Below are positions 7,170-52,783 of a stretch of 64,000 bases of DNA, piece after piece. Under the pieces are notes generated by a model that ran no database searches, was not told the DNA's origin, and saw nothing but the letters and a program-made list of their open reading frames with translations. The translations under genes and the position numbers were made by a program. The first letter of the stretch is position 1, and the number at the start of each line of letters is the position of its first letter. This DNA comes from an uncultured Polaribacter sp. (lineage in GTDB: Bacteria; Bacteroidota; Bacteroidia; Flavobacteriales; Flavobacteriaceae): the NCBI RefSeq assembly GCF_947503875.1, contig NZ_CANNFH010000009.1, positions 654 to 64,653 on the forward strand, written 5' to 3'.

Positions 7170-7198
7170 CTTAATAGTATTAAAACTGCCTTATTATC

Positions 7199-11464: not shown

Positions 11465-11542
11465 AATTCAATAATACGAATAACAATAAATATTTTTTTT
11501 AAGAAAGAAGATGCTTAATTTAGTATTCATAAAAATTAAAAC

Positions 11543-11911: not shown

Positions 11912-11936
11912 TTGAATCAAACTAAAAACAAAAACA

Positions 11937-25400: not shown

Positions 25401-28400
25401 TATAAATTCTGGTGTTAAGGTAGTTTCTGTACCTAAGGTAATTTCGCCAGGTCCAGAAAGCGTCCATAATACAGAGGCTGCATTATTTACAGTTGCCTCT
25501 CCTGCTAATAAGGTATACGATTCGTCTTCACAAATTGTAACTGTAGCGCCTGCATCTGCTTCGGGTTGTTTTGCAATTTGCACAACAACAGTGTCTGTAA
25601 CCTCTGCACAATTGCTATTACTTATAGCATGTAAAGTTAAAGTTACATTACCATTGCTAATGTCTAATTGACTTGGAGTATAACTTGCTAAATTAGTTGT
25701 TGCAAAAGGAGTACTAGACGAGCTAGAAGTCCAGAATTGCGACACATTATTAGTTGTTGCTCCGTTTAAATTTACCACATCGCCCTCGCAAATAGCCATA
25801 TCTAAACCAGCATTGACAGTTTGTGTTGGTAATAAATTTAATGTAAAATCTTTAAAAATAGATACTACTCCATTACAAGCTGTTTTTGGTTGCAGTGTAA
25901 GTCTTAAAGTAATTGGACTATTGGCTGCAATTTCTGTAGCGCTTGGTGTATAAATTGGATTTTCTATACCAACGTTGCTAAAAGTACCTGGCGCTGTGCT
26001 TAAAGAAGACCAAGATAATGTACTGTAATTACTTGCATTTACTCCTGAAATCACGAAAGGTTCTGTGGCACAATTGGTGCCATTATCTACATCAAAAGTT
26101 ACTGTAGGTTGTGATACAATTGCCACAGTAGTTTCCTCCGAAACTGCTGCGCAAGTAGCGTCTCCGGTAGCAGTAAATTTTAGTGTAAATGTTTCGTTTA
26201 AAATATCATTTGGGCCTGGTATGTATTTAGCATCAGTTGTGTTTTCTCCACTTATAAATGTACCATCAGAAACACCTACCTTTTCCCACAAATAGCTTGA
26301 GGCATTGCTTGCTGTTGCTGTTGCGTTATACACATCGCCTTCGCAGATTTCTGTTGCAAGATTGGTAATATTTACAGCTGGTGCTTGATTTATGGTAACT
26401 ACAATTGCATCTGAATCTGTTAGCATGCAGTCTTCATCACTCTGAGCTGTTAATGTTAAAGTAACAGAACCAGCTACCTTATCTGCTGCACTAAAAGTAT
26501 AGCTTGTGGTAAGCGCTGAAGCATTCCCAAATGCTGCAGTATTTGTAGAACTACTCCATAAATAAGTTGTACTCGCAGAAATATTTGTAACCAACGCAGT
26601 AAGATTTATAGTATTTTCTGTACTACAAACAGTTGTTGTATTTTCTGGCAAACTTACTTGTGGTATTGCTATTTTATTTAAAGTAAACTCTTGAGATACT
26701 GTATTGGCACAAGGTGCATTTCCAGTAACTGAAACTCTAATTACTACAATATCACTATCTAGTGCTGGTGTATAAATTGGTGTATTTATAGTTGTACTTG
26801 AAATGCTACCGGTACCACTTATAATTTCCCAATTGTAAGTACTTGGGTCTGCATTGGCAAAAAGTGCCTGCAATTGCTTGTCTTCTCCTTCACAAAAAAC
26901 AAGAGTATTTTGAGAAACATCAATGGTTGGATTTTTGCCAATATTTACACGGATTTTTTCTGAAACAATTGCAGTTGCACAAGCGCCTATAGGTGTTGCT
27001 GAAATGGTTAATTCTGAAAAACCATTGGCTATATCTGCCGCACTTGGTGTAAAAGTTGGGGTAAGATCTAAAGTACTACCTGTGGCAATAGTTCCTGGTG
27101 ACGAAGCAGACCAAACTATAGATTCCACATTATTAAAATTAGTAATATTTACTTGATCTTCTGGTACTTGATAATTCTCATCTTCACATATAGAAACTAC
27201 TGTTGGGCTTACCGTTAAAACTGGTTTTTTTAATAGTGTATAAACAACAGTATCCGTTGTATTTTCAGCACAAGGAGATGTTGCTGTGCCTGTTAGTGTT
27301 AACTGAACCGTACCATTGGCTATTTCTCTATCTCCCGGAATATATGTGGTTATTAAGCCTTTTGGTGATGTTAAGAAAATACCATCAGGATCATTGCTAG
27401 TCCATTGCAAATTACCAGCAGCTACATTAGATGCTGTTGCATCAAAAGTTGTAATGGATTCTCCTTCGCAAAAAGTTTTAGAAGCACCTGCATTAACTAT
27501 CGGGTTTTTAACCACCGGAATGGAAATTGTCTCACTAACACTAGTACAATTTCCTAACGGCGTTGCAATTACCGTTAATATAATTTCTCCGTTTGCAATA
27601 TCTGTTGCACTTGGCGTAACCGTTGGTGTTAAAGTTGTTTCGTTATTAATAATAGTTCCTGTTGAAGAGGTGTACAATAAATTAGATGCATTTACAATGT
27701 TCGTGCCTGTTACAGTAATATTTTCTGCATCTTCACAAATTGGAGCTTGATTGGTTACTGTAATTTCTGGCGATGCTTGAATATTAACAGTTATCGTTGA
27801 TACTGAAGCAACCGAACAAGGATTTATTGGAAATGCAGTTAATGTTAAATCTACAGTACCAGTAGCTATATCTGTTACAGAGGGTATGTATGTTGGATTA
27901 ATTGTATTATTAATACCACCTACAAAAGTACCGCCACTTGAAGAAACCCACTGCAAACTACTGTAAGTATTTGCAATTGCTGTTGCTGTAGTAATGGTAA
28001 AAGGAACGTCACATTCTGATAAATTTACACCTGCATCTGCTATAGGTGCTGGTATTACATCTAAAACTATAGTTTCGGTTTGTGGTGTAATACATGGCGA
28101 AACTGGGTCTATAGTTAATGTTAATATAATGTTTGGCTGTGTTAAATCAGCAGCAGAAGGTGTGTACTTTGGATTTAAAGGATCTGTAGTAGCTGTAAAA
28201 GTACCAGTTCCAGAAGTTGTCCAATTAGCCAATGATACCGGCATGTAATCATTTAAAATACTTGTACCACTTACCGAGTAATTTGTACTTGTATTACAAA
28301 TAGCATCAGTACCAACCGTTGTAATTACTGGTATTGGCTCAAAAGACAATTCCATAGTATCTGAAACAACGTCTAAACAAGGTGCTAAACCTGTAAGTGC

Positions 28401-31400
28401 TAAAGTAAGGGTTACAGAACCGTTTGCGATATCTGTTACAGAAGGTGTGTAAGTGGCATTACTTACATCATTCTGATTGCTAAAAGTTCCTGTACCTGAA
28501 GACAACCAAGTTGCTTGAGAAAAATTACCTGCAGTTGCAGAAGTAGTTGTATACGTTGTATTACCACAAATGGTTGCATCATTTCCTGCCTCTACAATTG
28601 GCTTTTCTACAAAATCTAAAGTAATAGAATTTGTGGTTGATGAATTACAATTAGAAGGAATTCTTGCTGCTTTTAAGGTTAAAACAACACTGCCACTTGC
28701 AACATCTGCTGCTGAAGGAGTATAAAAATTAGCTGTGGTTGTATTGTCAGGTGTAGTATCTGTAAAAGTACCACTACCACTACTTGTCCATTTTAAAGTA
28801 TCAAAATCTATTGCAGAAACATCTGGAATTTCAAAAGGAGCTGTTTCCGAACAAACAGCGACAGATGGGTTGATAACTGTAATACTTGGTATTTTATTTA
28901 TGTCTAAACGCATTTCACTTACCGCATCTACAGTACAGGGACTGTCTTTAAGTGCGGTTAAGGTAAGCTTTGCGTAACCTCTACTAATATCTGTAACACT
29001 TGGCGTATAGGTTGGTCTTAATGTATTTCCGCCAGTAAAGCTTCCACCTCCTGAACCTGCAGACCAAATTACATTTCCACTAATATTAGTTGCAGTGGCA
29101 GTAGTTATTTCAAAATCTTCACCTTCACAAATAGTAGCATCTACGCCTGCATCTGCCGTAGGGTTTGGTATTATCGTTACCGTTGTTGAAACAGCTGTAG
29201 AATTTCCTGTACAAGGACCTTCTGGTTGTCCAACAATCGTAAAAGTAATAGTACCTGTTTCTGATGCTGAAGATGTATAGGTTGGGTTTAATGTATTTTC
29301 GTTTGTAAAAGTACCAGAACCTCCAGTTCTTGTCCAAGAAACTCCGCTTGCGTTAGAAGATGTACCGTTTAAAGTAATACTTTCTCCTTGACAAATAGTT
29401 TGTGCCAAACCAGCTGTAACCACTGGCTTTTTTTGAATATTAATTGTTACAGTATCATTTTCTGGATCGCAACTCGTTTGAGATCCTGTAATAGTAAAAG
29501 TAACCGAACCATTATCAATATCACTTGGAGAAAAAGTATATATAGGGTCTTCATCATTGGGGTTATCAAAAGAACCTGCTCCTGTACTAGTCCAAGTAAC
29601 AGAATTTACATTAGAAGCAGTTCCGTTTAAAGTTACAGTTGGTTGAGATTCGCAAATAGTTGTGTTGCCACCTGCATCTACAATTGGTGCCGCATTTATT
29701 TTATAAATAAAAGTTTCTGTAGCAGGAGTTCCGCAGGGAGAAATGGGATTTACAGTAACAGTAAAAGTAATACCAGTATTAAAATCTGTCTCAACCGGTG
29801 TATAAATTGGAGTTGCTGAGTTTTGAGTACCATTAAAAGAACCACCACCGTTAGAGGTTGACCACAGAATAGTACCTGGATTCTGAATATTTGCAGCTAA
29901 ATTTAAAGGTGTTGTTAAACCGGCACAAACAGTTGCATCTGCTATTTCATCTATTGTTGGGTTTTTTTCTATTGATAAAATAGTTTCACTAAAAGAAGTA
30001 GCGCAAGGTGAATTCCCGGTTCCTGTTAAGGTAAGGGTTACCAAGCCCAAATCTTTGTCATTTATACCAGGTGTATACGTTGGTGTTAAAGAATTGGCGT
30101 CTATAAAGGTTCCATCTCCACTTGTAGACCAAGCAACAGAAACGGTATTAACATCTTTTGTAGCGCCTGATGGCACATATGGTTCGTTTTCACAAATTAC
30201 TGTTGAACTTGTACCAGCATTTACAATCGGACTTGGCACTATGGTTACCATTACTGTTGATGTACTTGAATCACAATTTGCTGAAGAGGTTGTTAAAATA
30301 AAAGGAATTCCTAAAGGATATAATGTATTTGCGATTAGAGCATCTGAAATACTCGGTGTAAAAACTGGGTTTGGTGTATTAGCTAAAGTTAAAGCACCAC
30401 TAATATCACTGGGCTTAGACCATGAGTAACTAGTTGCAAAAGTAGAATTTGAACCATCTAAGGTAATAGGATCTGTGCCACAACCCGAAATATCTGTACC
30501 AGCATTTGCTGTAGATTTACGGGCAATATTTATAGTTGTTTCTAAAAAAGGAATTTCATCTCCGCAAGTATCCGTAACAAAAAGTCTAACAATAGCTTCA
30601 CCACTTGTAATTGCAGATGTAGAAGGCGTAAAAGTTATTTCAGTTGGACTTAATATATTGACTTCTCCAGAAGAAGCAGGAACTGCCTCCCAACGAGTGC
30701 TTGAGTAATTTCCTGTAATAGTTGCTTCTAAATTAGTTGACATATCTGCATCACACATATCAATTGTTGTACCTCTATTTAAAGAAACTATTGGCGTTTC
30801 ATCAACCGTAATTGTAACACTATTCGATTTCGTACAACCCGTTGCTGTAATAGTTTCTGTTAAGGTAAAAGTAGTTGTTTGTAAAGGACTCACCTTTGGA
30901 TTTTCGCTTGTTGAAGATACTGTTGGAGCATTCCATGCATAAGCAGGTGAAGCTACCCAACTATAGGTAGAACCTGTTTTTGAAGCAGCACCAATATTTA
31001 TTTCTTGTCCTTCGCAAATAGTAGCTGCTGCTGCTACAGCTGCTGTTGGCAGAGGTTGCATTGTAACTTCAAAAGTTTGCTCTACTATACAACCTGCTGT
31101 ATTGGTAACTTTTAGCGTGTATTCTTCGGATGCTGTAATGGTTCTTGTAATAGCTGAACTTGTTTCAGTTAAAATTCCACCTGATAAAGACGACCACTCG
31201 TAGTTATAGCCAGGTATTGGTGTTACTTCTCCAAAAGTTACGGTATTACCAAAACACACTTCTTGATCTGAAATTAGAGGTACATTAGGTACTGGATTTA
31301 CTTTAATTTCTATTTCTGATGACCTTATTTGACTACAAACACCATTACTACTTACGGCTCTGTAAAAAGTATTTTGGGTTAAAATACCAGTATTATATGT

Positions 31401-33587
31401 TGTTGAGGTGTTGGTGGTATCTAAAATCCAACTTCCCTGGTTTCCTGTGGTAGAAGACTCCCAGCCAATTACAACACCTGCTTGGCCAGTTAAAGAAATA
31501 TCGGTTGCTGTATTTGCACAAATTTCTGAATCTGAAACAGCCAAGGTACCACTTGCTCCGGGTATATTAGTTGTTACTGCAATTACATCAGAAGAAAATT
31601 CACCACAAATACCAACAGTCGAAGAACTAAGAATTGCTCTAAACTCTACAGTATTATTTATTACGGCTGTTGTATAAGTGTTTGCACCAGAAACCACCAT
31701 ATCATTATACGTATCCCAAGAATCCCCACTATTTGTTCTAGATTCCCATCGTATTAAAGAACCTTGTGTGATAGAAAAATCGATATCTATGGAACTTCCT
31801 TGACAGATTGGACTAGAAAAGCCCGCAGCCATTACAGGCGAAGAAAATACGGGTTCTTTTTCTACAATAATATTTTCAATTGATGTAAAAATTGTTTCGC
31901 AAGTACCGTTTTCTAACAACACTCTAAAATCAGTAGACTCTAGCAATAAACCAGAGGTATAAGTATCTGTTGTGTTTGAAATTGAAGTCCAAACACTACT
32001 ACTAACTTTTTTAGATTGCCATTCTACAATAGTGCCCGAAAAACGCTCTAATTTTAAACTTACGTTAGTATCTTCACAAACAATGCTTGATGGAGAAGTA
32101 ACTATTAAATTACCCGTATCAATTGGGCTTGCTATGGTTACTAGAGTCGCAGCAGAGGCAACCTCTGTACAAGTTTCATTTTTAACCATTGCTCTAAAAG
32201 AGGTATTTCTATCTAAAGGTAATGTAGTATAGTTATTACTGGCAGAACCAGAAATACCTACCCAATTCACACCATTATCAGTAGAATATTGCCAATACGA
32301 AACGGTTCCGTTAGAGCCTGTTAATTCTAATTCTGTAGTCGCATTTTCACAAATAGTTCTACCACCAATTGCAGTACCCGGAACAACTGTTTCATTTACA
32401 ACAATCTCTATTGCATTTGAAGTCGCTTCTGTACAAGTATCACTTTGTACAATAGCTCTATATTTTGTAGTAGTTACAGGGCTTACCGTTAAAGGTTCTG
32501 TGGAGGTTGTAAGTGTATTCTTAGTGAGAAAATTGTCTGTAGAACTTTCCCATCTTAAGACATTTCCGATTGAATTAGACAACGAAATTGTTGTGTTATC
32601 TCCTTCACAAATAGTTGATGCTGTTGCATTAATTGCACCTGGATTACTAGCAGGATTTACTGTTATTGTAAAATCAAAAGGCTCCCCTTGACACCCTTTA
32701 TAGGTGGGTACTACTGTTACAGTTGTTGTTTTCTTATTTGCAGTATTATTTATAGCTTTAAAAGCAGGAATTGGAGAACCAGAACCAGAGAAAGCTAAAT
32801 TACCTATATCCTCATTAGTTCTAGACCAAGTATACGAAACCCCTGTGCCACTTGTAGGTGAACTTGCTGTTAACACGATGTCTGAAATAAAGGTGTCATT
32901 ACAAACTTCGATATCTGATATAGCATTTAAAACTGGCTTCGGATTTACTGTTATTGCAAAAGAAACTAGTGCTCCTTCACAGCCATTAACTATCGGTGTT
33001 ACAGTAACAGTAGATTTTATTGGTTCTAAAGTAGTATTTATTGCTGTAAAAGTTGGTATCTCAGAAACATCTGAATTCGATGTTGCCAGACCAATATCTG
33101 TGTTACTATTCGTGTAGCTAAACGTTAAAGTACCTAATGATGGTGTTACAGAAGATAACGAACCGAATAAAGAAATAGCGTTAAAAGTATCGCCAGCACA
33201 AATATCTACATCGTTCAAAACGGTTGTTACATTGGGTGGAATGTAGCTAAACTGAGTTCTAATTTGCGTACCATCTACACTAAAAAAACCAGAAGTAGCA
33301 TTGCAAGGCACCTCTACTTCTATTTCATTTACACTCTTAAACGTAACTGCAGTAGCTGGAATAGCAACACCTCCCAAAGTAACTTTATCTCTATCTGTAT
33401 CTAAAAAACTACCTGAAGAACTTGTTAGCTTTACAATAGTACCAGAAGTACCAGTTATTGGATTAATGGAGTTAAAAGAAGGTGTATTTATTTTATTTAA
33501 AAAACCTGCATTTGCAGTAACTGTTGACAATAATAATACAAACAAAAAGGTGTACCTTTTTATTTGTGCTGGGGGGAATTTTAACAC
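16470..33587 (-). CDS. Giant (5705 aa) SprB-like surface adhesin with T9SS type B (gliding motility-associated) CTD
   Basis: Signal peptide, IPT/TIG-like start, dozens of ~95-aa W..G.G.F....P.YTP...D...G.V.LTL repeats, PKD-like units, and C-terminal FPTAFSPNNDNINDLF..YIYD..G..VYE..WNG. Confidence 0.9.
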   Translation of the reverse strand: MLKFPPAQIKRYTFLFVLLLSTVTANAGFLNKINTPSFNSINPITGTSGTIVKLTSSSGSFLDTDRDKVTLGGVAIPATAVTFKSVNEIEVEVPCNATSGFFSVDGTQIRTQFSYIPPNVTTVLNDVDICAGDTFNAISLFGSLSSVTPSLGTLTFSYTNSNTDIGLATSNSDVSEIPTFTAINTTLEPIKSTVTVTPIVNGCEGALVSFAITVNPKPVLNAISDIEVCNDTFISDIVLTASSPTSGTGVSYTWSRTNEDIGNLAFSGSGSPIPAFKAINNTANKKTTTVTVVPTYKGCQGEPFDFTITVNPASNPGAINATASTICEGDNTTISLSNSIGNVLRWESSTDNFLTKNTLTTSTEPLTVSPVTTTKYRAIVQSDTCTEATSNAIEIVVNETVVPGTAIGGRTICENATTELELTGSNGTVSYWQYSTDNGVNWVGISGSASNNYTTLPLDRNTSFRAMVKNETCTEVASAATLVTIASPIDTGNLIVTSPSSIVCEDTNVSLKLERFSGTIVEWQSKKVSSSVWTSISNTTDTYTSGLLLESTDFRVLLENGTCETIFTSIENIIVEKEPVFSSPVMAAGFSSPICQGSSIDIDFSITQGSLIRWESRTNSGDSWDTYNDMVVSGANTYTTAVINNTVEFRAILSSSTVGICGEFSSDVIAVTTNIPGASGTLAVSDSEICANTATDISLTGQAGVVIGWESSTTGNQGSWILDTTNTSTTYNTGILTQNTFYRAVSSNGVCSQIRSSEIEIKVNPVPNVPLISDQEVCFGNTVTFGEVTPIPGYNYEWSSLSGGILTETSSAITRTITASEEYTLKVTNTAGCIVEQTFEVTMQPLPTAAVAAAATICEGQEINIGAASKTGSTYSWVASPAYAWNAPTVSSTSENPKVSPLQTTTFTLTETITATGCTKSNSVTITVDETPIVSLNRGTTIDMCDADMSTNLEATITGNYSSTRWEAVPASSGEVNILSPTEITFTPSTSAITSGEAIVRLFVTDTCGDEIPFLETTINIARKSTANAGTDISGCGTDPITLDGSNSTFATSYSWSKPSDISGALTLANTPNPVFTPSISDALIANTLYPLGIPFILTTSSANCDSSTSTVMVTIVPSPIVNAGTSSTVICENEPYVPSGATKDVNTVSVAWSTSGDGTFIDANSLTPTYTPGINDKDLGLVTLTLTGTGNSPCATSFSETILSIEKNPTIDEIADATVCAGLTTPLNLAANIQNPGTILWSTSNGGGSFNGTQNSATPIYTPVETDFNTGITFTVTVNPISPCGTPATETFIYKINAAPIVDAGGNTTICESQPTVTLNGTASNVNSVTWTSTGAGSFDNPNDEDPIYTFSPSDIDNGSVTFTITGSQTSCDPENDTVTINIQKKPVVTAGLAQTICQGESITLNGTSSNASGVSWTRTGGSGTFTNENTLNPTYTSSASETGTITFTIVGQPEGPCTGNSTAVSTTVTIIPNPTADAGVDATICEGEDFEITTATATNISGNVIWSAGSGGGSFTGGNTLRPTYTPSVTDISRGYAKLTLTALKDSPCTVDAVSEMRLDINKIPSITVINPSVAVCSETAPFEIPDVSAIDFDTLKWTSSGSGTFTDTTPDNTTTANFYTPSAADVASGSVVLTLKAARIPSNCNSSTTNSITLDFVEKPIVEAGNDATICGNTTYTTTSATAGNFSQATWLSSGTGTFSNQNDVSNATYTPSVTDIANGSVTLTLALTGLAPCLDVVSDTMELSFEPIPVITTVGTDAICNTSTNYSVSGTSILNDYMPVSLANWTTSGTGTFTATTDPLNPKYTPSAADLTQPNIILTLTIDPVSPCITPQTETIVLDVIPAPIADAGVNLSECDVPFTITTATAIANTYSSLQWVSSSGGTFVGGINNTINPTYIPSVTDIATGTVDLTLTAFPINPCSVASVSTITVNIQASPEITVTNQAPICEDAENITVTGTNIVNASNLLYTSSTGTIINNETTLTPTVTPSATDIANGEIILTVIATPLGNCTSVSETISIPVVKNPIVNAGASKTFCEGESITTFDATASNVAAGNLQWTSNDPDGIFLTSPKGLITTYIPGDREIANGTVQLTLTGTATSPCAENTTDTVVYTLLKKPVLTVSPTVVSICEDENYQVPEDQVNITNFNNVESIVWSASSPGTIATGSTLDLTPTFTPSAADIANGFSELTISATPIGACATAIVSEKIRVNIGKNPTIDVSQNTLVFCEGEDKQLQALFANADPSTYNWEIISGTGSISSTTINTPIYTPALDSDIVVIRVSVTGNAPCANTVSQEFTLNKIAIPQVSLPENTTTVCSTENTINLTALVTNISASTTYLWSSSTNTAAFGNASALTTSYTFSAADKVAGSVTLTLTAQSDEDCMLTDSDAIVVTINQAPAVNITNLATEICEGDVYNATATASNASSYLWEKVGVSDGTFISGENTTDAKYIPGPNDILNETFTLKFTATGDATCAAVSEETTVAIVSQPTVTFDVDNGTNCATEPFVISGVNASNYSTLSWSSLSTAPGTFSNVGIENPIYTPSATEIAANSPITLRLTLQPKTACNGVVSIFKDFTLNLLPTQTVNAGLDMAICEGDVVNLNGATTNNVSQFWTSSSSSTPFATTNLASYTPSQLDISNGNVTLTLHAISNSNCAEVTDTVVVQIAKQPEADAGATVTICEDESYTLLAGEATVNNAASVLWTLSGPGEITLGTETTLTPEFIPEPGQTGNVTLTLTANAAPACASLSDVIATKTIRITPKPKVTIPSNRSICEGDNLQLLDADINASDFTTLKWVSSNGLGSFVTQTNGNTTYTPANNQTGVVTLSLVAIPLDTACSSVKKDLILTIHPNAQVFAGTDVSICEDETVVIQDADINYGNGVFNWSIAGPASITSGTENTLTPEIVPNVGASGLVTLTLEAAGSSECPSSKSDSVTISINALPIVSAGAPQEICEGETEVQLNGTVSNATSFNWSHSGDGTLVATANPLKPKYVPAATDFINSFGISTVNIFLEAFGNNTCGNTTATTTITLQAKPKAYAGVDMVACVGDVISLDAATASNFNTLLWETSGNGIFDYTTAGGQIKPTYKLGTDDTTEVTLTMIATPNGVCTANTTDEIVISINQLPTITATTDELTFCGNTFTLPSIVSVANSTSYNWTNTTAVANKSIVVNPNSLTPTISPTAEEVANGFISLTVTAQPKTACVGVVTKTIKVNLTPVFTVDAGNPKTICATDNPIVLNFGATTSSSTGDYYWTSNGAGTILSSSLNTLQPQYQPGPNETGTIEFTLHANNVAPCSGEITDTVNLVIDPLTTVDAGLDIAVCEGSSINITNAKATNYTSLQWIASSDILGNTISDGSFSPASATVLNATYSPSTADIARGFVYLTLQSTNTCGTVSDYLRVNISEGAGVFAGNNATTCTGDSYEITDASATNTSSVVWASAQNANGTSLASYVAGSFSDINATNPVYTPSASDLNQGYVYLILTGNGESSCSIDNSFMRLDFVKTPSLVAQDVAICVDTPSVTLNTTALDYDTITWSVFSGSGTISAGANSETPVFTANISSTITTPQTTILKAVLTPKNGCDTADTVVEEVVITTQPLPTVNAGDDGFVCYTPGQPIGLFTINNTSFENASSVEWSTSGNGVFSSGFPTTYQSLTNTCSETVQLTLTATGMGACGTKTVSDVVNLTINCAAPNLGVITSSSTQNVCQGTTVTYQVPANSLVTDYQWSVPSGATIQSQSGNTITVEYSENAVSGIVSVAAKNSCGVGELSTLPITIAPIPKVTTISGPSVICESLQDYMFTAGVIADATSYIWTLTDGSTITTLDNILTIVGSTTLPSGNLSVKGVNSCGAGIDSLAFFVEVVSKPTLTSTISNSAICSGETFNYQPTSVAGASFSWTRSQQSGIEGTALGNGAVQDVLINTTSSVKTVTYQIEIITTTGCSNIELITVPVNPAAQLTNAPIDSEICSGSVFSFTPASDISGTISWSRAAIFGIQEPTTSGSGTIFENLTNTTANVITVNYELTLPTTTEGCNNTEVISVEVLPTPAVATAISGALNVCIPSADNTYTVAAIPNAITYDWRLSDGTIRNTNSNSISLDFTTLTTSETLEVRGVSSCGNGTFSAPFTITGINLPTITNTPSATSICSNELFSFTPTSATANSFIWERQFVNGIATPVSSGSGSINEILVNETNTPITVTYVYTITSPESCKNTVSINIIVKPIPQIINTPTTSICSGSTFNFVPEISTSGTETTAVNWSRVASFGIIGSSDTGVGAISETLENTTNAVIPVTYNLTLKNDTSGCQITETIVVDVYPLATADIESSVNTCLNGADSFVNFKAENGIAPYTFTYTVNGGSEKTITTNGTSSSVQLSLFSNALGAYTYRLLSVKDSGPNTCVNTFATPKEISIDIFAKPVLNITNPATICASETVNLTDPVYTAGSDINLNYTYWEDVNATVPFLLASTASEGIYYIKATNANNCFTIKPIEVKENPLPLVQIENNESEIFVCEGSELVLNASGAQNYQWYTKDSTGTTSILSTGDVYTYTPAVTQIIYLQGTDANGCTNTAQVAVVLKPAIKASIEGVNDYEVCLNTENVSITFKASNGTAPYTFTYLVNNNVKEVTTLPDNNSVAITISTDIAGVFNLELIDVKDSSLANCNNPILQTPKKATVTVFDSEILPVANTEVFQSVCVNEPINPIYFSAVSPILSAYVEGLPSGVTSSFAGNTLTISGTPTVAGTFNYTVSSSVLNGACNSTYAGVITVNSGGSITPLVDTEINQSICSCATIEPILFELSADTFGANVTGLPSGVTWEIENNIVLISGSSCATAGDYNYTVTVQGNCSSSTTSGLISITDPNSIFLINGNQDEEVCNNSILAPIEYQANPGQTLKLIGVLPQGVTFVADTATGTAKITGTPERSGTFSYTITSDSECSDFLEGTIEVIADPFISLMSGSINQESCIENQIEDIRYKISENNTNISFTPSLPAGISYSENNGQLVISGAATEKSISTIYTIGISNNCGVTVTTDFKLEILEKPSIVLDSNFGATTQSVCQNAEINPIQFTVMPIGTTIDLALLPSFITATEIDPSIGLWELTGAPKNTGIFSFNVATINNSNCSDSLPIVIENLYAALDVTLESGTENQILCNFNLPIEDLVYKITGAITDINSINVVGLPNGVSYTKTITATGVLLTISGTATETGVFNYDITFDTCGAIESGSLRISSIIAMNSTVNQISCTDELGSIEINIYGGLPFIDDNGGVFYNIEWTGPNGFRQNQTEINGLVPGDYTVNITDALGCVLATPETFTITPAVPININLLNTTLANGCNGELGCANLEYSGGTGIYTDFLLEISNPQTQEWNVKIPDNNNYFNMCGLDVGVYRISVTDSKSCTTEPFIFTIENDNQFTIEQVVVEQSLCDGNTGLILVDVNSADTNLTFTLNGIALPANALGNNLYELEVSNVADTNATLEISNSSGCKISEEIIFTTLAPDFEFTSFEFENFGFFEVNSSIEFTNLSFIDTSIYDPNVYSYIQWDFDDNTPFKTFYYPENIASNKDGENLKTVFHTYQNDGIYNVKLTLFNASGCETTITKTIFIGKGSTVMFPTAFSPNNDNINDLFRPKHLGFSEITMYIYDSMGNMVYEFTSADALSLESDDTWGWNGIAPLNEQPKTGNYRCYFRGKTIDNKVVEKNIRFLLIK

Positions 33588-34320
33588 AATTTTTAATTTA
33601 AAAAATGAATATTATGCAATATTGGCTCAAATATATATATAATATGTTAAAGTTTAATAACCTATTTTTCTTTTTAAATATTTTTTTTTGGAAAAAGTAG
33701 GCTACTTAATTTACTAATTTGAATGCACCAAACATTAAACATTTTTAAGAAATTACACCTTTAAAACCATTCGCTTTGGCTATCAACACTTTTAGAACTA
33801 AAGAGATAGCATTCTTACAATTATTGTTGCTACTCAAAAAACATATCTAAGATACCTTTTTAAAAAACTATAAGGAACTTCTATAAAGGACAAATTAATA
33901 TTTAAAACCACTAAAAGATGATCCCTTTCCGAAAGGAATTATTATAAATCGTAAAAAAACTTACATCGAAAAGAAATTTTAGTTAGAAAGTGAGTGTAAA
34001 ATAAAGCATATGTATTTATAGAATTTAACAAACTAAAAAAGTTAATGAAGAAGATAAAACTTTATCATGTAAACATAAAGTTTGCCATTCAAAAGGTGTT
34101 TCTAGGAATGCTTTTTAAAGAAAACAAAATCGCCAAATAAAAAAAGCAGTTGCAGATTTAATAGCTTTTTATGATAAAGTAGTAAAAAACACAAAACTTC
34201 TCCTTGAAATTAGAACAAAGGGAAACTATAAATTAATTTCTCTCTAATGTTAAGCGCACAAAGGGAATTGTTAAAAACAAAAAACGGAAAATCAATTCAA
34301 ATGAATCAATTCTCCGTTAG

Positions 34321-34343
34321 AGTGAGCCCTGCAGTTGAATCTT
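34321..34343 (-). repeat. Degenerate copy of the tRNA-Arg 3' end (old att scar)
   Basis: agtgagccctg is identical to the first 11 nt of the att repeat, followed by cagttgaatcttc versus aaggattcgaaccttc. Confidence 0.5.
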
Positions 34344-34407
34344 CAAACTTTTTAAACGACCTAAATCGTATTTTATCTTTCAAATTTTGACTAGTTAAAT
34401 TTGGTAC

Positions 34408-34444
34408 AAAAAAAAATCCCAAGAATAAAAAATTATTCTTGGGA
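34408..34444 (-). terminator. Terminator downstream of the displaced tRNA copy
   Basis: tcccaagaata-aaaaat-tattcttggga perfect 11-bp stem with an adjacent A-run. Confidence 0.75.
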
Positions 34445-34450
34445 ATAAAT

Positions 34451-34519
34451 AGTGAGCCCTGAAGGATTCGAACCTTCGACCGCCTCCTTAGAAGGGAGGT
34501 GCTCTATCCAGCTGAGCTA
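34451..34519 (-). repeat. att direct repeat (displaced 3' portion of tRNA-Arg, lacking the 5' acceptor strand)
   Basis: 69 bp identical to 52708-52776. Confidence 0.97.
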
Positions 34520-34554: not shown

Positions 34555-34578
34555 AATGTGTCAAAAGTGTGCCAAATG
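34555..34578 (+). repeat. Candidate integrase arm-type sites (left)
   Basis: aatgtgtc-aaaagtgtgcc-aaatg matches the AAATGTGTGTC tandem at 52539-52574. Confidence 0.55.
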
Positions 34579-35637
34579 AAAGTAATTTATCCAAGAGTAA
34601 AGATTAATTCTTCAAGTAGAGTTTACGTAGTATTTTATCAAAACAACAAACGCTATAGATTGTTTAATGGTTCTAAGATTAATTCTGAAATCTACCCTAA
34701 CTCCTATCCTATTTCTAAACGAATTGAAATGGGGAACCTTTTAGCATCAGAAGTATATAAATTTTTGATAAGTGGTTTAACTCTAGAACAGATTAAAGTA
34801 TCCAATCTTATAAAGTCTAATATGACAGATAAGGATTACTTAACAGTAGCGTTAGAAAACAAACTAAAAGAAAACTATACCAAAAAATATAAAGAAATGT
34901 TACAGTTTATTTTTAACAGACTTATTGATGAACTGAATGACTCCCCTATTCAACCTCTGCATATAGAGACAGTATTAAATAAATACAATTCAGAAAGTTC
35001 CTACAACACCTATAGATTGAGGTTATGCTCATTGATAAATGAAGCAAGAAAAATAGGTATGACTTCCAATCCAATGCAAAGAATAAAGTCAAAAAGAACA
35101 AAAGCTCAAATGCACAAACCCTTTAAAAATGTCAATGTAATACTTGAAGCTATTAAAGCATATAATAAACATCTATACCTATGCTGTTTAATGACCTATG
35201 GATGCCTTTTAAGGCCTCATAGAGAAATAAGAGAACTTACTTGGTCAGACTTTTCAGATGACCTCAAATACATTCATTTGTCTGGTAGTAGAAATAAATC
35301 TGGTAGGAATAGAATTGTTCCTGTACCAAAGTATGTTAGAGATATTCTTGTAAAAGGAGAACGGCATCATAATATCTTTTCAGGTAAACCCAAACCTTTA
35401 AATAAAGACTATTTTAAAACCCTTTGGAGCCGTTTTAAGAGACAATCAAACATACTTGAACAAGGACAAACCCTATACTCTTTTAGGCACTCAGGAGCTA
35501 TAGAGATCTTTAAAAGAACTGGTTCTATAACCAAGCTACAGAAAGCTATGGGACATTCTTCTATAAATGTTAGTTTAACCTACTTGAGGGGTCTAGAAAT
35601 AGCTGAATTGAAGGAGGAGGATATGCCTATTTTTTAA
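34576..35637 (+). CDS. Tyrosine recombinase / site-specific integrase
   Basis: LLRPHREI (R), NKSG (K), YSFRH, MGH and LTY catalytic pattern. The start is either ATG 34576 or GTG 34558. Confidence 0.93.
   Translation: MKVIYPRVKINSSSRVYVVFYQNNKRYRLFNGSKINSEIYPNSYPISKRIEMGNLLASEVYKFLISGLTLEQIKVSNLIKSNMTDKDYLTVALENKLKENYTKKYKEMLQFIFNRLIDELNDSPIQPLHIETVLNKYNSESSYNTYRLRLCSLINEARKIGMTSNPMQRIKSKRTKAQMHKPFKNVNVILEAIKAYNKHLYLCCLMTYGCLLRPHREIRELTWSDFSDDLKYIHLSGSRNKSGRNRIVPVPKYVRDILVKGERHHNIFSGKPKPLNKDYFKTLWSRFKRQSNILEQGQTLYSFRHSGAIEIFKRTGSITKLQKAMGHSSINVSLTYLRGLEIAELKEEDMPIF
35563..35637 (+). repeat. Integrase 3' tail, copy 1 (20-bp core 35563-35582)
   Basis: 63/75 nt identical to 38133-38207. Confidence 0.95.
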
Positions 35638-35690
35638 TGAAAAAATTATGTAAACTATTGAAGGAGTAATAGTATGAAATTTAATTTTAC

Positions 35691-37640
35691 TTAATTTTTA
35701 ATACATCTTATACAAACACCTTTATCACCATATGAAAATTCTTTTAGAGAATATTTAGGATTACTTTTTTCAAATGCTACTTTATAATTTGAAAGCCATA
35801 AAGAGGTACTTTGACCAAAATTATACCAAACACCGTCAGCACTAATAGCTCCATATAACTTTAAATTAAAGCCATTTGGTACTCCTTCTAATTGCCATTC
35901 GTAAATACTAGACATTAAATTTCTTACTGGAGCATCCGCATAATCTAAATTACTAATTAGTATTTCCCAATCGTTTAATGTTGGAATCCTCCAACCTTGT
36001 GGGCAAATATTATAGTTAGCATTAACAACAGTACTATTATAGTAAACCCCACCTTCTATGCTAGAATATAAACTATTATTTACATTATCATTTGAATACC
36101 AAAATTGACTTGAAGTTGATTGTGTTAAATTTGTACCATCATTAAAGCGAGTTACTTTTAAATTTTCTGCCATCCATACTTGATTCCCTAGAGTTACTGT
36201 ATTATAAGTATTTTGATCAATATCAGTAACACTTCCATAATTAAAAGGTGTTGTAAATTGAAGATTATCAGTATGTATGCCATATGCAATAATCCCTTCT
36301 TCATTTTTTGCAAATGCTCTGTAAAAATAATTAACATTTGGTGATAATTGACTGAAATTTGCATTAAACTCACCAGTCCCTGTCCCACTTGTAACTATCT
36401 GTCTTGGAAGATTACTAGCAAGATTTAAACCCTGATAATATTCGCTAACAATAACACCTCTTTCAATAATAGCAAGACTTCCATCATTATTAACACTGTT
36501 ACCAATTATTTCTACGCCATTAAAAGTCAAATTTGTATGCTGACCATTTGTAACAGTGAGATCATCTGTTAATGTTTCAAAGGAAATAATTTCACCATAT
36601 GCTACCCCTACGCTATTTTCTGCAAAAGCTCTAACATAATAAATTGTTCCCGGAGTTAAATTTTCTATTGATAGTACACCATCTCCTTCAATAATATTAT
36701 TATTACCATTTACAGAAAGTAACTGTTGGTTTCTACTATAAATAATACCAGATCTAACAATATCTGATCCTAAATTTGTAATTTCTAAACCTGAATTTAC
36801 AGAATAATAAGATATTTCTAAAACTGGTTTTGTTATTACTGTTGGTAATACATCACTTGTTGTGAAATTAAATGTATTTCCATAAAAAGATCCAAAACTA
36901 TTGGTTGCGTATGCTCTATAAAAGTAATTAGTTAAAGGTGTTAAATCTGAAATACTACTAGTAAAACTTGAAGCTCCTGGCCCCTCATTTGTTTTAGTAA
37001 TTAAATCTACACTAGGATTGGGGTCTTCACTCCAAACAACACCTTTAGCCGTTATACTTGCACCACCATCTGAACCAATATCACCTCCAGAAATTCCACC
37101 ATCACTATTAATTTGGTAAATCTCAACTGTTGTAATTTCTATTTGATTAACGTTACTATTATTACTTGTAACAGACCAATTTACCCCATCCCAAACTAAA
37201 ATATCTCCAGCATTAATACCATCAGGAATACTAGCTGATGTATTACCACTATTTGCAGCATACAAAGCGTATGGAACACTTAAAAGTTGTGTGGTTCCCA
37301 TAGCAACATAACCATTTCCGGTATCTAATTCAATACCTAAATAATAACTCCCCAATGACCAGTCTAATTCTGAAAATACTCCATTATTGGCAGTCCCTTG
37401 TCCAATCACAAGGTTAACCTGCCCTAAATCATCTGTTGGCACGTAGTGCGTTTCTGTGTATATTGGCACTGCTGTTTGAGAGCCCTGAATGATGTTAAAC
37501 TTAAAATAAACATTAGTATTTACAACTAAATCACCTGAACTATTTCTTACTGTGGCTTGGTAATTAAACCCCTGTGGAGCTTGGGCATTTAGGCTAAGTC
37601 CTAAAAAAAGAACTATTATAATGAATAGATAGTTTTTCAT
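35691..37640 (-). CDS. Secreted FISUMP (Fibrobacter succinogenes major paralogous) domain protein with FN3-like repeats
   Basis: Signal peptide, QAPQGFNYQATVR..LLSVPYALYA N-domain, three RAYA/RAFA FN3-like repeats, and YNTVTLGNQVWMAENLK..CPQGWRIPT..W..RCIKN. Confidence 0.88.
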   Translation of the reverse strand: MKNYLFIIIVLFLGLSLNAQAPQGFNYQATVRNSSGDLVVNTNVYFKFNIIQGSQTAVPIYTETHYVPTDDLGQVNLVIGQGTANNGVFSELDWSLGSYYLGIELDTGNGYVAMGTTQLLSVPYALYAANSGNTSASIPDGINAGDILVWDGVNWSVTSNNSNVNQIEITTVEIYQINSDGGISGGDIGSDGGASITAKGVVWSEDPNPSVDLITKTNEGPGASSFTSSISDLTPLTNYFYRAYATNSFGSFYGNTFNFTTSDVLPTVITKPVLEISYYSVNSGLEITNLGSDIVRSGIIYSRNQQLLSVNGNNNIIEGDGVLSIENLTPGTIYYVRAFAENSVGVAYGEIISFETLTDDLTVTNGQHTNLTFNGVEIIGNSVNNDGSLAIIERGVIVSEYYQGLNLASNLPRQIVTSGTGTGEFNANFSQLSPNVNYFYRAFAKNEEGIIAYGIHTDNLQFTTPFNYGSVTDIDQNTYNTVTLGNQVWMAENLKVTRFNDGTNLTQSTSSQFWYSNDNVNNSLYSSIEGGVYYNSTVVNANYNICPQGWRIPTLNDWEILISNLDYADAPVRNLMSSIYEWQLEGVPNGFNLKLYGAISADGVWYNFGQSTSLWLSNYKVAFEKSNPKYSLKEFSYGDKGVCIRCIKN

Positions 37641-38113
37641 TGCTTAATAATTTTATAGGTATTAGTTTGTTTATCTTCTGTTGTTACGTTTACAAGGTAA
37701 ATACCTTTTGAATAATTTTCTATATTAATAGGTTCTCCTTTCACCACCTCTTTTTGTAGTAATACTTTTCCTGTTAAATCAGAGATAAATACTTTAAAAT
37801 AATTACTACTAGGGTGGGATATGAAAATTAATTCTTTAATTGGGTTTGGATAAACCTTTACTAAAAGATTTGTTGTTGGAGTTTTTATACTTAAAACGTT
37901 AAGATTAAAAGAGGGATAGTAACCATTACCTAATTGAAAACTACCGTCTTCAGAAGTCATACCTCCAACCACAATCTCCCCAGCAGTATAACTCAACTTT
38001 ATGTTACTATTTGAAAGAGACCCTCCTAGTGGTGCTAAAACCTGCTTGGAAATAGACTGAGCAGATATTTCAAAAGAAGCAAGGATTAAAAATAAGTAGA
38101 GTATATTCTTCAC
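37637..38113 (-). CDS. Small T9SS type A sorting domain protein
   Basis: Signal peptide; VYPNPIKE...GIYLVNV...YKIIKQ CTD; 4-nt overlap with the FISUMP gene; GTG start. Confidence 0.85.
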   Translation of the reverse strand: MKNILYLFLILASFEISAQSISKQVLAPLGGSLSNSNIKLSYTAGEIVVGGMTSEDGSFQLGNGYYPSFNLNVLSIKTPTTNLLVKVYPNPIKELIFISHPSSNYFKVFISDLTGKVLLQKEVVKGEPINIENYSKGIYLVNVTTEDKQTNTYKIIKQ

Positions 38114-38124
38114 AAGATTTTTTT

Positions 38125-38132
38125 CAAATATA
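38125..38132 (-). promoter_or_regulatory. -7 promoter element TATATTTG of the cassette genes, abutting the 20-bp core
   Basis: Matches TAnnTTTG 12 bp before the GTG. The same tttcaaatataat context occurs upstream of the 38197-38595 gene. Confidence 0.6.
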
Positions 38133-38207
38133 ATAAATGTTAGTTTAACCTATTTACGAGGTTTAGAAATAGCTGAACTAAAAGAAGAAGATATGCCTAT
38201 TGTTTGA
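38133..38207 (+). pseudogene. Integrase 3' tail, copy 2 (displaced; encodes INVSLTYLRGLEIAELKEEDMPIV*)
   Basis: 20-bp core identical to copy 1, then 12 differences: 10 synonymous, 1 F/V and 1 stop-to-stop. Confidence 0.93.
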
Positions 38208-38595
38208 CAAGTGTAACGTTAACATTATTTGAACCATTAACATTTAGCCATTTTATTGAATTTTCAGATACTTTTTCAAATTCATAACGATATTCACTAC
38301 CTGCAATAGTAGTAATTGTTAAATATCTTGTATTAGATATTTCTTCATATACATTAAAATCAGTTACTTGACTATAAGTTTGCTCGTAGCAAGTGGTAAC
38401 ATTTCCAGAGGCTAAACAAAAATCACTATCTCTAAATTCAAATCCTGAAGTTACTGGAACATTTGGAATTATCCAAACTCCCTGAATCCAGCTAGGTGGA
38501 TTATAATTGTTGTCTGACATTGCACTCTCACTATCATCACTACTGGTACATGAAAATAATATAGCTAAACTAAACAATAAGATTATTTTTTTCAT
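38197..38595 (-). CDS. Hypothetical lipoprotein
   Basis: MKKIILLFSLAILFSC lipobox; its stop overlaps the displaced integrase tail. Confidence 0.8.
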   Translation of the reverse strand: MKKIILLFSLAILFSCTSSDDSESAMSDNNYNPPSWIQGVWIIPNVPVTSGFEFRDSDFCLASGNVTTCYEQTYSQVTDFNVYEEISNTRYLTITTIAGSEYRYEFEKVSENSIKWLNVNGSNNVNVTLVKQ

Positions 38596-38846
38596 AATAT
38601 TTTTTTTTCAAATATAATATTTTTATTTGAATTTGAATTTGAATAAATGTACTGTAAAACCTGAAATAGAGTATATTAAATTAACAATTATAGCTATATA
38701 AATATATATAGAAGTGAAATTTTTATTTTTTAACTTTACCTAATAAAATTGTTTCTTAGTGATTCCCATAGAGGGGGACATACGCTTTTAATATGTATAT
38801 GGGGAGTTGTAAAAGGACACCCAACTTAAACTTAACACACAATAAA

Positions 38847-39383: not shown

Positions 39384-39504
39384 TTTATGGTTATAGCTAT
39401 ATACTATAATAGCCATCTTTAGTTGATGGGAGTTTTTTAGGTCTCAATAGCTTTAAGATGATAATATTAAAGATTTTGATATATTTAACTCAAAATAAAT
39501 CAAG

Positions 39505-42768: not shown

Positions 42769-45700
42769 TTATTCAATTAGCCCTTTTTCTAATACTTTTT
42801 CTATGTAGGTATGTTTATCTTCATCTTGAAAATAAACATTGGCATTATGATAATGTTCAATAGTTTCATCATCAGACCTTCTATATTGCATATTCTTGAA
42901 AGAAGTGTTAGAAATAATAAAGGAATTTAAGAAGGTTTTTTTATCGTCTAATTTAGCTTGAAACTCCTCTTTTATAGTTTTATGTAATCTTACTTTAGGG
43001 TGATTCCAAACATCTTCTAGCATATAAATTCCTTTTGGGTCTACAAAACTTAGATATTGTTTATCTCCTACAATTTGCCATAACATAAAATCAGGATAGA
43101 AATTCTTAGTTTCAGTTAGAAAACCAATACCAGTTTTGCTTTGATTTCTAAGTAGATATACTTTTTTGTCATTGAAATAACTCTTATTAGCATTATAGTA
43201 CTGCTTCAAATCATCTACAAAGTCCTTTTCTCCTTCATTTAACTGTACAGGAGAAACTTTCACAATATCCTTATATATCTTGTCATTCATATAGAGTAAA
43301 GGATAATAAAGATGGTTTCCATAGTCAAAACCTACAAAAGAGCCTCTGTTTAATTCAAAGTCTTGTTGGAGCATATCATCTTTCTTAACAAGCTCTTTAA
43401 ACTCTAAAACATTTCTAATAATATCTGTTTCATTTTCTTCAACAGAAATACTATATTCTTCTGTAAAATTAGGATGACTTTCTTCAAGAATATCAACTTC
43501 AATATGTCTTGCTAAGTATTTGTTTTTAATGCTTAAGTAAAATTTTTCAGTATAGTTTTTAAGTAGTGCAATCACTAACTCTTCCCATATAAATACTCTA
43601 TTAAAACTTGATGGCTCTAAGTCTGATGTTGGTATTGAAATCTGATACCAAGTATCATCATTCATTATTTCCTGAAGGTTTTCTTTTGTGACTGATAAGT
43701 TATACCAACTTCTTTCATTTTTATATTTCTGAATTTCAAAAAAGACTTTATCCCAATCAATAAAGGCTAAATTATGAGGCTTTAACGTTAATCCTACATC
43801 TTTACCATCTACCACATTAGTAGTTGATTGGTTACTACTAATCATTTGAATTTTTGGGTACCAATCTAACTTAATATCTAAATACCTTGAATTCTCTGTA
43901 ATTTCTAAAACTGTTATATTTTCTTTTTTGTAGTTTTCAGCTACACCTTCTTTTGTTTTGATTATTTTTAAACTATCTCTAGTTTTAGAATACCTGTTTA
44001 TAGTTGGTATTGTTATGGTTTTAAAATTACCTTCATTTGTTGGTAACCCTTCTTCTTCAAGGTATTCTTTAAACTGCTGCATATAATCAGCTTTAATACC
44101 AAATATGTTTAAGGTCTCTAGTGTAGGTATGTATTTAGGTGTTTTTTCTTTTGGTCTTTGATAATCATCTAATCTAGAACTACGTTTTAAACTCATGTTA
44201 AAACCTTTTAAACGTACACCTCTACCAAATAATTGAATTATCTGACTTCCTTCTCCTTTACCAATATTCATCAATCCCATGGTGCTTACTCTCCATGAAG
44301 ACCAACCTTCAGTAAATTTTTTAGAACCAATTAATAAATTTATGTTACTATCTTTTTCATTGATATTATGAAATAGACTTTTTGAAAATTCTTTCTCCAT
44401 ACCCAATATACCAACTGCCATACATAGTTTATGAAGTTTAGCTTCATCCCCTACATTTATAACACCAAAATATTGGTCTGTATCTCCAATTCTTAAACCA
44501 AGTTCTCCATCTGCACCTTTTAGGTTGTCTAGGTGTACATTGGCACCAACAAGACTTGTGTTAAATACTTTTTGAAGTATATCAGTATAAAGTAAATCTG
44601 ATTCAATTTTATTTTCCTTTAGGTAATCAAAAGAATTTGAAAATATAGATGCTCCATTCTCATCATTTAAACCTGCATTACCAGTTAAAATTTGATTGAT
44701 ATGATTTTTAGAATTACTTGGGTCTTTTATAAAATCTGAAATGAATTTAACAATGGTAATTACATCAGATAGCTCTAACTTCTTTTTGTTTCCAAACTCA
44801 TCTGTTATGGTCTTGCTACTTACAGAGTTCACTTTTCCTCCAACAAATATCCATAATGGTTTTGCTAGTTTGTAAACATCCATTTTAGATGAATTTTGAT
44901 TGTATACTAACTGTTGCTGGTAATAACCAAGTAAACACGCTGTTAAATACTTTCTTAAATACTCGTCATTAGTATCATCCTTTATGTTTAGAATCTTATA
45001 ATCTTTACCATATCCATCTTTATAAAAATACTTGTAGCTATAATCAAATAGAATAGCCTTACTGTACTCTTTAAATAAGATTTCTTTTTTCTTTCCTGAA
45101 GCTGCACTTATGGCTTGACCAAATGTTGCAGAATACTCAAAAGCAAAACCGTTTTCACTTAATAGGTCTCTTCTTTTTTTCCATTCATCACCACTAGCTC
45201 CTCTATGTCCTTCATCAACAAGAACAAGGTTGTTTTTTTCAAAAGCGTCTACAGCTACAGTTTTATCTCCACTATCTTCTGCTAGTTTACTTATTTCTAT
45301 AATCTCAACCATTTCCCCAGAAAATAAAGCTCCTGAAGACTTGCTAAATATTTCTGCTTTTATGTTAGAGGCTGCAAACTCATTTAAATGCTGATTAGAT
45401 AAACCTTCATTAGGCGTAACCAATAATACTTTGTTAAAGTCTTTTTTGCCATACTTTTTAGCATAGTGCAAATACTGTTTAATGTTTACATGAAGTAACA
45501 ATGTTTTACCACTTCCTGTAGCAGACCAAATTGCTATTTTACTTAATTCATCTACAGTAAAATAGTCTGATACATAATTATACTCATTAGGGACACTATT
45601 GTCTAAAGGGTCATTAAAAGCATCTACAAACTGATTTAACTCTGCCAATAATAAGTTAGGATTAGCAAAATATTTATCGAGATAAATTTCTATAAACAGT

Positions 45701-46005: not shown

Positions 46006-46022
46006 GTTATTGTTTGGTTATA

Positions 46023-49079: not shown

Positions 49080-49108
49080 ATTTTTTAATGTGTGCTTGCT
49101 TATACCTT

Positions 49109-49285: not shown

Positions 49286-49296
49286 AATTTAAATTT

Positions 49297-52574: not shown

Positions 52575-52709
52575 ATTATAATTATTTAAAAATAAAAACT
52601 TAAATTTACAATGCGTTAAGTGATAACAATAGAAGTATTGGATTGTTGTAAACCCTTATTAATAAAAGGATATAAACAAAAAACCACCACATTCCTGTGA
52701 TGGTTTAAG

Positions 52710-52783
52710 TGAGCCCTGAAGGATTCGAACCTTCGACCGCCTCCTTAGAAGGGAGGTGCTCTATCCAGCTGAGCTAAGAGCCC
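52710..52783 (-). tRNA. tRNA-Arg (UCU)
   Basis: Cloverleaf GGGCTCT...; anticodon loop CTTCTAA; GGTTCGAATCC T-arm; 74 nt. Confidence 0.96.

Follow-up and report, generated by a model that had tools for sequence, protein, structure and literature searches.

The stretch of DNA analysed here (the window) comprises 64,000 nucleotides of an uncultured Polaribacter sp. of the Flavobacteriaceae (RefSeq assembly GCF_947503875.1, contig NZ_CANNFH010000009.1, positions 654 to 64,653), and our subject is a tyrosine integrase gene in it, the 3' end of which is present twice. The last 75 nt of this gene return downstream as a direct repeat of 73-75 nt, offset by 2570 bp and 85% identical to the first copy (Table 1); we refer to the two copies as tail 1 and tail 2. 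The initial 20 nt, ATAAATGTTAGTTTAACCTA, which we call the core, are the same in both without a mismatch and form the longest identical run of the pair, the remainder of the tail being 78% identical. This 20-mer has 2 exact occurrences in the window, against 0.04 expected from shuffled sequences, and a nucleotide profile of the tail, run with nhmmer over the whole 3.1-Mb genome, recovered the window's two copies only. The repeated part encodes INVSLTYLRGLEIAELKEEDMP(IF/IV) and a stop codon, the catalytic tyrosine of the integrase (LTY) being included in these final 25 codons; tail 1 translates as INVSLTYLRGLEIAELKEEDMPIF followed by a stop, and tail 2 ends in MPIV and a stop. After the core the copies have 11 differences, 10 of them synonymous, and the core itself has 0 differences at its approximately 7 synonymous sites, compared with 10 of 18 in the remainder of the tail. 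Tail 2 belongs to no long open reading frame (ORF), its open frame being just 35 aa. The duplicated integrase end described by an earlier reading of the sequence alone (the sequence-only reading) is thus confirmed, and since the copies are only 85% identical, the doubt which that reading had raised about an assembly artefact can be set aside as far as a collapse of the assembly is concerned.

Between the two copies lie only a T9SS (type IX secretion system) gene and a FISUMP gene with a promoter box of their own, and a domain search found no recombinase there, in agreement with the same reading; we call this segment cassette 1. Its TATATTTG box, which we take to be the Bacteroidetes -7 promoter box (consensus TAnnTTTG), directly touches the core of tail 2. 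Pairs of T9SS and FISUMP genes related to cassette 1 were found behind an isolated tail at one other locus (L122) and directly behind an integrase at another (L215), and the cassette is absent from 37 genomes of the same genus, in which only partial matches, at 69%, were seen. Tail 2 is followed by a lipoprotein gene, the second cassette-like unit of the window, and by orf196; exact-protein look-ups of the integrase and of the lipoprotein gave no record in other assemblies. Further on there may be a degenerate third remnant of a core or tail, for which the nhmmer search of the window with the tail profile gave no match, the sequence being too degenerate. A short tandem repeat, (ATTTGA)x3 at 38626-38643, lies between the promoter of the lipoprotein gene and this possible remnant.

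Table 1. Features of the integrase end of the island, of its cassettes and of the two att ends (positions are those of the window).
Feature	Position	Strand	Basis and remarks
Displaced 3' part of tRNA-Arg(TCT), one att end	34443..34517	-	68-nt match to the intact tRNA; Rfam model positions 8-63
Tyrosine integrase gene	34558..35637	+	359 aa from GTG 34558; ATG at 34576; PF00589 5e-14; PHROG 1 8e-32
Tail 1, working last 25 integrase codons; first 20 nt are the shared core	35563..35637	+	nhmmer 66.6 against the tail profile
Cassette gene 2, 649 aa, fn3-like repeats and FISUMP domain	35691..37640	-	PF09603 5e-25; convergent with the integrase
Cassette gene 1, 158 aa, secreted, T9SS C-terminal sorting domain	37637..38113	-	PF18962 1e-11; GTG start 38113; signal peptide
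Cassette promoter -7 box TATATTTG (CAAATATA on the + strand)	38125..38132	-	Touches core 2 directly
Tail 2, displaced integrase 3' end (core and 55 nt, ending in PIV and a TGA stop)	38133..38207	+	E = 7.6e-7
Second cassette-like unit, 132-aa lipoprotein gene	38197..38595	-	Overlaps the 3' end of tail 2 with its stop codon; TATATTTG box of its own (38609-38616)
Possible degenerate third core or tail remnant ATAAATGTACTGTAAAACCTGAAATAG, weak	38643..38669	+	By eye; partly conserved in L109
Intact tRNA-Arg(TCT), other att end	52709..52783	-	ARAGORN, Rfam and alignment

The integrase is at the same time an ordinary tRNA-Arg island integrase, so that a site for cassettes in its own gene would be a second target. 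A 68-nt perfect repeat of tRNA-Arg(TCT) positions 8-75 delimits an island of 18.3 kb, with the intact tRNA at one end, the fragment at the other and the integrase beside the latter att end (the fragment is 41 nt upstream of the integrase ORF); this arrangement places the integrase at one end of the island and is that of a tRNA-integrating element. Among the 81 integrases of the family for which upstream sequence was available, 75 have a tRNA or a tRNA fragment approximately 40 nt upstream, the tRNAs being those for Met, Asn, Ala, Arg, His and Val, and the core of the tail is conserved across the integrases that target these six different tRNAs. The residues CQM immediately before the annotated ATG (34558-34576) are also conserved across the family alignment, and the integrase may thus start upstream of this ATG, at a non-ATG codon. 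Ahead of the integrase start there is a conserved motif (..TGTCAAATG..), which was considered as a core-like site and rejected, as it codes for this CQM N-terminus instead.

A comparison for the right junction of cassette 1 is offered by L109, a locus of another uncultured Polaribacter, with an integrase of the tRNA-Met type that has 51% protein identity to that of the window. Window positions 38133-38830 align to L109 at about 86% identity, and the alignment begins exactly at the first base of the core. To the left of this base stands the cassette promoter in the window and the body of the integrase in L109, where the intact integrase end is followed by homologues of the lipoprotein (70%) and of orf196 (76%), in this order. 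The unusual ending CCTATTGTTTGAC is common to tail 2 and to the tail of the L109 integrase. Judged by this alignment, L109 is the uninterrupted state of the window's right junction, and tail 2 was formerly a working integrase end with the lipoprotein gene directly after it.

We then looked at how widely such displaced tails occur. A scan of 401 Flavobacteriaceae genomes gave many tail-only matches, which start at residues 330-336. For a closer analysis, 79 loci obtained by an integrase profile search of genome contigs were combined with 80 loci taken from marine metagenome contigs, in which more than 555 related integrase stretches were confirmed, to give 153 non-redundant loci, and tails were located in these with the nucleotide tail profile. 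There were 150 tails within integrase genes and 135 isolated ones, of which 133 are on the strand of the integrase. The genome-contig set of 79 loci has 63 isolated tails, and 48 of them are downstream of the integrase and on its strand, despite the slightly greater amount of upstream sequence searched. At least one isolated tail was present at 69 of the 153 loci, and arrays reach 5-8 tails (L054, L099, L089, L154 and L158), in which tails are 279 bp to 7.7 kb apart. The sequence-only reading had predicted multiple tails downstream of a single full integrase, bracketing different cargo, and this is what was found. Most of the arrays whose upstream end is within the fetched sequence start at an integrase of the same family as that of the window, and some arrays have no integrase within the fetched sequence. 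Those located upstream of an integrase terminate at a tRNA-Arg fragment, which indicates that they belong to the preceding island of a tandem. Many isolated tails are within about 100 nt of the ends of contigs of draft or metagenome-assembled genomes (G067:C45, G062:C12, G319:C13, G072:C10, G389:C16, L044 and others); the tail repeat thus seems to interrupt assembly from short reads, and the number of arrays is probably an underestimate.

The segments between tails have a regular anatomy. Their ORFs are mostly antisense to the tails (77, versus 24 in the sense orientation); for 16 of the 70 segments, the TAA within the tail-end GTTTAG or GTTTAA serves as stop codon of the ORF, and at the other end of the cassette the start codon is followed by a short leader and then by CAAATATA, flush with the next core. 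Eighty-four cassette proteins match 62 Pfam families, which include SnoaL, T9SS sorting domains, FISUMP, TPR, short-chain dehydrogenase, sulfatase, cation efflux, helix-turn-helix regulators and outer membrane protein barrels; no recombinase is present among the 25 commonest of these families. Four cassette families are common to different arrays. A 280-bp cassette, encoding a 60-aa membrane protein with two helices, is 97-99% identical in L054, L096 and L041, and is the third of the array in L054 and the second in L096, with different upstream neighbours. Another, of 490 bp and 91-94% identical, is the first after the integrase in L055, the second in L058 and the fourth in L089, and further cassettes are shared by L089 and L054 and by L093 and L114.

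We lean towards the view that cassettes devoid of an integrase were captured at these loci by a site-specific event at codon 335/336 of the integrase gene, and that each of them came with a replacement tail in which the catalytic tyrosine is included. The region just downstream of the island integrase gene would then be a cassette platform, and the recombination site would start at codon 335/336 (ATAAATGT...), just before the codon of the catalytic tyrosine. A cassette would comprise a duplicate of the final 25 codons of the integrase, one or a few genes reading toward the integrase and a TAnnTTTG promoter, with no integrase of its own. It would enter this site most probably in circular form, the integrase itself being the most probable catalyst, and would thereby supply a new working tail, the old one being displaced downstream, where it would decay. 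In the window, cassette 1 (35583-38132, with the FISUMP and T9SS-sorted proteins) would have been added ahead of the older tail at 38133-38207, which would have kept its original neighbours, the lipoprotein gene and orf196. The integron-like system put forward by the sequence-only reading is supported by its comparative prediction in this respect, the TAAA-N6-TTTA which it pointed out within the 20-mer being a putative functional core; the site specificity of the events, their catalysis by this integrase and the circular intermediate are what we infer from the sequences.

The position of the junctions is evidence for a precise event. We defined the boundary of each isolated tail by extending integrase homology leftward from it with a position-specific score. 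It lies between core positions 0 and +2 for 37 of the 135 isolated tails, and smaller groups are found at +6 to +8 (15 tails) and +9 to +15 (18 tails). The sequences upstream of the 38 junctions at -1 to +2 form 29 unrelated clusters, and the -7 box stands at the junction in 22 of these 38. One might instead consider the isolated tails as the leftovers of older integrases of tandem islands at the same tRNA, of which the att site and the 5' part have been deleted, and the cassettes as leftover cargo. Tandem islands are indeed real in this family, in which a tRNA-Arg fragment closes arrays and the next integrase stands after it, and fragmented integrases and partial tRNAs have been treated as debris in the work on tycheposons (bioRxiv 10.1101/2020.12.28.424599). 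Locus L094, from an Aequorivita metagenome-assembled genome, provides a case: at 5839-12100 an integrase is followed, 3.9 kb on, by a 122-nt integrase remnant and then by a 99% identical copy of the first island's cargo block, and from this order L094 is best read as an island in tandem or nested arrangement, of which the second integrase is truncated. Random deletion is nevertheless no explanation for a junction that recurs in 29 unrelated contexts and that has the -7 box in 22 of 38 cases, as 37 random deletions would not all stop inside one stretch of 3 nt, nor would they repeatedly set a promoter box flush with the core. Moreover, tRNA fragments are absent between the tails within arrays, some tails are as little as 280 bp apart with one ORF tightly filling the space, and identical cassettes have different neighbours. 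As a general account of the isolated tails, tandem-island debris seems to us quite improbable.

A precise capture would also exchange tails, and the tails behave as though they had a history of their own. Their identity is nearly flat with respect to that of the integrase bodies: where bodies are 40-60% identical, tails average 0.79, and where bodies are 96-99.5% identical, tails average 0.90, with a minimum of 0.73. This suggests that tails are replaced among close relatives and shared among distant ones. Codons 334-350 have a less varied codon choice than the rest of the gene (relative entropy 0.68 versus 0.87, p = 2e-4), and codons 351-354 vary freely in this regard. Among the full-length isolated tails, 62 of 67 are without an internal stop and 66 of 67 retain the tyrosine codon.

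Several observations nevertheless weigh against a purely site-specific capture. Some 20 of the 135 isolated tails retain 13-330 nt of extra integrase sequence, as tandem debris would, some of the long ones being truncated second integrases of tandem islands as in L094, and many other tails begin inside the tail. Displaced tails are under relaxed constraint, with a ratio of synonymous to non-synonymous differences of 167:194, versus 516:237 between working tails, and the tails that flank shared cassettes have a mosaic structure and a lower conservation than the interiors of the cassettes, so that neither locates the crossover point. A change-point analysis of 30 non-independent pairs of close integrases placed 11 breakpoints at -10 to +5, and the remaining ones inside the gene at distances of up to 356 nt. 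The conserved left flank of the core may be only a promoter rather than a recombinase-binding arm. The evident cognate site of the integrase is the tRNA-Arg repeat, which is unlike the core of the tail; when core likeness to this repeat or to the tRNA D-arm was sought, only matches of 6-7 nt, at chance level, were obtained. Finally, the cargo beside the integrase can differ with no extra tail. The integrase of L110 is 98% identical to that of L109, and 2.8 kb of other DNA, bounded by the end of the integrase and by a point just past the lipoprotein promoter, replaces the lipoprotein gene there; similarly, G166 has an 85% identical integrase, with the same tRNA-Arg and layout as the window, and a completely different cargo.

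Some of these points are those which homologous recombination would account for. Under this explanation, tails and the 3' part of the integrase gene serve as portable homology, tail-flanked cassettes are moved by RecA-dependent single or double crossovers, and the left boundary is inherited from an ancestral module made of a promoter and a tail. The breakpoints of close pairs, which range from -356 to +47, indicate that crossovers inside the gene occur and that homologous recombination also reshuffles these loci; the mosaic tails around orthologous cassettes and the swap between L109 and L110 are in keeping with it. The tails would be a poor substrate for RecA, however, being 75 nt long and 80-90% identical, with an identical run of at most 20 nt in the window pair, and crossovers cannot newly create one junction nucleotide common to 29 unrelated cassette sequences. 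The near uniform orientation of the tails (133 of 135), the strong bias in gene orientation and a core that is fully identical in the window beside a tail remainder at 78% also argue against homologous recombination as the only process, and we find it unlikely in that role. Together with the decay of tandem islands, it would be either a contributor to site-specific capture or its rival.

If capture is site-specific, the enzyme might still be another one. A host recombinase of the Xer type, as for IMEX elements (integrative mobile elements exploiting Xer) or pdif modules, or an unrecognised protein of the island could recognise the core, the integrase gene being only the target. The core is, as noted, unlike the tRNA att repeat that the integrase evidently targets, and the genome has further tyrosine recombinase genes in two places, one on C1 and one on C8. 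Yet the arrays with a known upstream end mostly start at this one family of integrases, the window's own genome has tails nowhere else, and the core is conserved whichever of the six tRNAs is targeted; the involvement of another enzyme is in our opinion very improbable, and the island integrase is the candidate that we retain.

The resemblance of this candidate capture system to integrons concerns its organisation more than its parts. As in integrons, a tyrosine recombinase gene stands beside an array of small, mostly single-gene and recombinase-less cassettes, which have one orientation, a repeated separating site within which ORF stops are often found, and members shared between arrays; the arrays with no integrase in the fetched sequence recall the CALINs (clusters of attC sites lacking integron-integrases). 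The integrase, on the other hand, is not an IntI, as it scores 22.6 bits with the NCBIfam integron integrase model TIGR02249 against a cut-off of 265, its sole Pfam match being the generic PF00589. Nor was a hairpin of the attC type found when tails were folded as single-stranded DNA on both strands (-1.5 to -6.1 kcal/mol, z from +0.8 to -2.4), which is a further point against the capture that we favour; the repeat is copied coding sequence and has no palindromic character. The site here would be the last 25 codons of the recombinase itself, with insertion at the 3' end of its gene and within the ORF, rather than at an attI upstream; the cassettes have their own promoter and are read toward the integrase, and the platform sits on a tRNA-integrating island. 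Xer/dif modules such as IMEX and pdif differ in that the repeats are here integrase tails and that the integrase, at 32 and 23 bits with the XerC and XerD models, is far under their cut-offs of about 330; no explicit search for dif-like sites is part of this comparison.

Other known systems share one or another of these properties. In Streptococcus thermophilus, integrase-less CIMEs (cis-mobilizable elements) accrete with ICEs (integrative and conjugative elements) at the 3' end of fda. There too, att-flanked elements devoid of an integrase stack beside one that has it, each with a replacement 3' end for the target gene; but the target is a housekeeping gene instead of the integrase gene, and the units described here are far smaller (0.3-3 kb), each with a promoter. 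Archaeal integrases of the SSV (Sulfolobus spindle-shaped virus) type have their attP inside the int gene, and the integration of SSV1 splits and inactivates int. The recombination site would likewise be within the integrase coding sequence in our case, but the tail carried by the cassette would restore the gene, and the event would add cargo and would not be the integration of a whole element. The nearest described arrays in the phylum are those of rAID-1 (recombinase-associated acquired interbacterial defence) in gut Bacteroidales, in which the array begins with a tyrosine recombinase gene and continues with short, AT-rich acquired genes, the intergenic regions having conserved motifs (Ross et al. 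2019, bioRxiv 10.1101/471110; 10.1101/2025.05.03.651265), a structure that its authors found reminiscent of integrons, with a mechanism unknown (bioRxiv 10.1101/471110). They are defined by a recombinase that exceeds 44% identity to BF9343_RS08045 and, after it, 2 or more low-GC genes that are co-oriented. The likeness lies in the phylum, in the tyrosine recombinase and in the array of short acquired genes; by their description, however, rAID-1 genes encode immunity proteins and are co-oriented with the recombinase, whereas the ORFs analysed here are mostly antisense, the rAID-1 repeats are intergenic motifs and not copies of a recombinase tail, and a tRNA-island context is not described. In tRNA-anchored additive islands and tycheposons, finally, partial tRNAs are the repeats between units and integrase fragments are debris (bioRxiv 10.1101/2020.12.28.424599; PMC4119200). 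These elements likewise have an integrase beside a partial tRNA, tandem stacking at one tRNA and a strain-variable cargo, in marine bacteria, but a system of integrase-tail repeats is not described there. Full-text literature searches found no description of integrase-tail repeats that bound cassettes.

Three other mechanisms that produce repeated or variable sequences were considered and rejected. A diversity-generating retroelement does not fit because the copies do not differ at adenines specifically and a reverse transcriptase is absent; an inversion of the shufflon type does not fit because the repeats are direct and not inverted; and gene conversion from silent cassettes does not fit because the copies encode the same peptide.

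We are evenly divided on whether a broader claim holds, namely that marine Flavobacteriaceae have a second, independently evolved cassette-capture system, with its site in the integrase ORF, cassettes that bring a promoter and a spare catalytic C-terminus, and a platform that travels between species on tRNA islands. It would be an integron-like platform built from different parts, in a phylum in which classical integrons are rare, and a recombinase that targets its own coding sequence and has its catalytic tail replaced at each capture would be mechanistically unusual. Such a system would account for the swapping of single accessory genes (secreted and surface proteins, small enzymes, regulators) in abundant ocean flavobacteria, for the variability of islands next to tRNAs and for the assembly breaks at the tail repeat. 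It would also be a common one, given the number of related integrase stretches in marine metagenome contigs.

The rest of the island, past the cassette region, holds orf196, an SF2-like helicase gene and a DISARM-like defence cluster. Three large co-oriented genes at 42769-52191 (- strand) encode a 964-aa SNF2 helicase, a 1030-aa methyltransferase-like protein and a 1078-aa protein with no family match. The 964-aa protein matches DISARM DrmD_b at 5.5e-206 and is yet under the cut-off of the model, and from these matches the cluster is DISARM-like or type III-like. The motif T(T/A)AGCTATAT(A/T)TATAT flanks orf196 at 38686-38700 and 39389-39403 and is also found upstream of orf196-like genes in L109, L110, L122 and L215, and it may be an operator or promoter of a conserved orf196-helicase island module. 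Outside the island, a single ORF of 5705 aa (16470-33587, - strand) ends about 860 nt before the att fragment. A second, degenerate remnant of a tRNA-Arg 3' end, CTGCAGGGCTCACTC, is located at approximately 34318-34345, about 120 nt outside the att fragment, which suggests an older, lost integration at the same tRNA-Arg.

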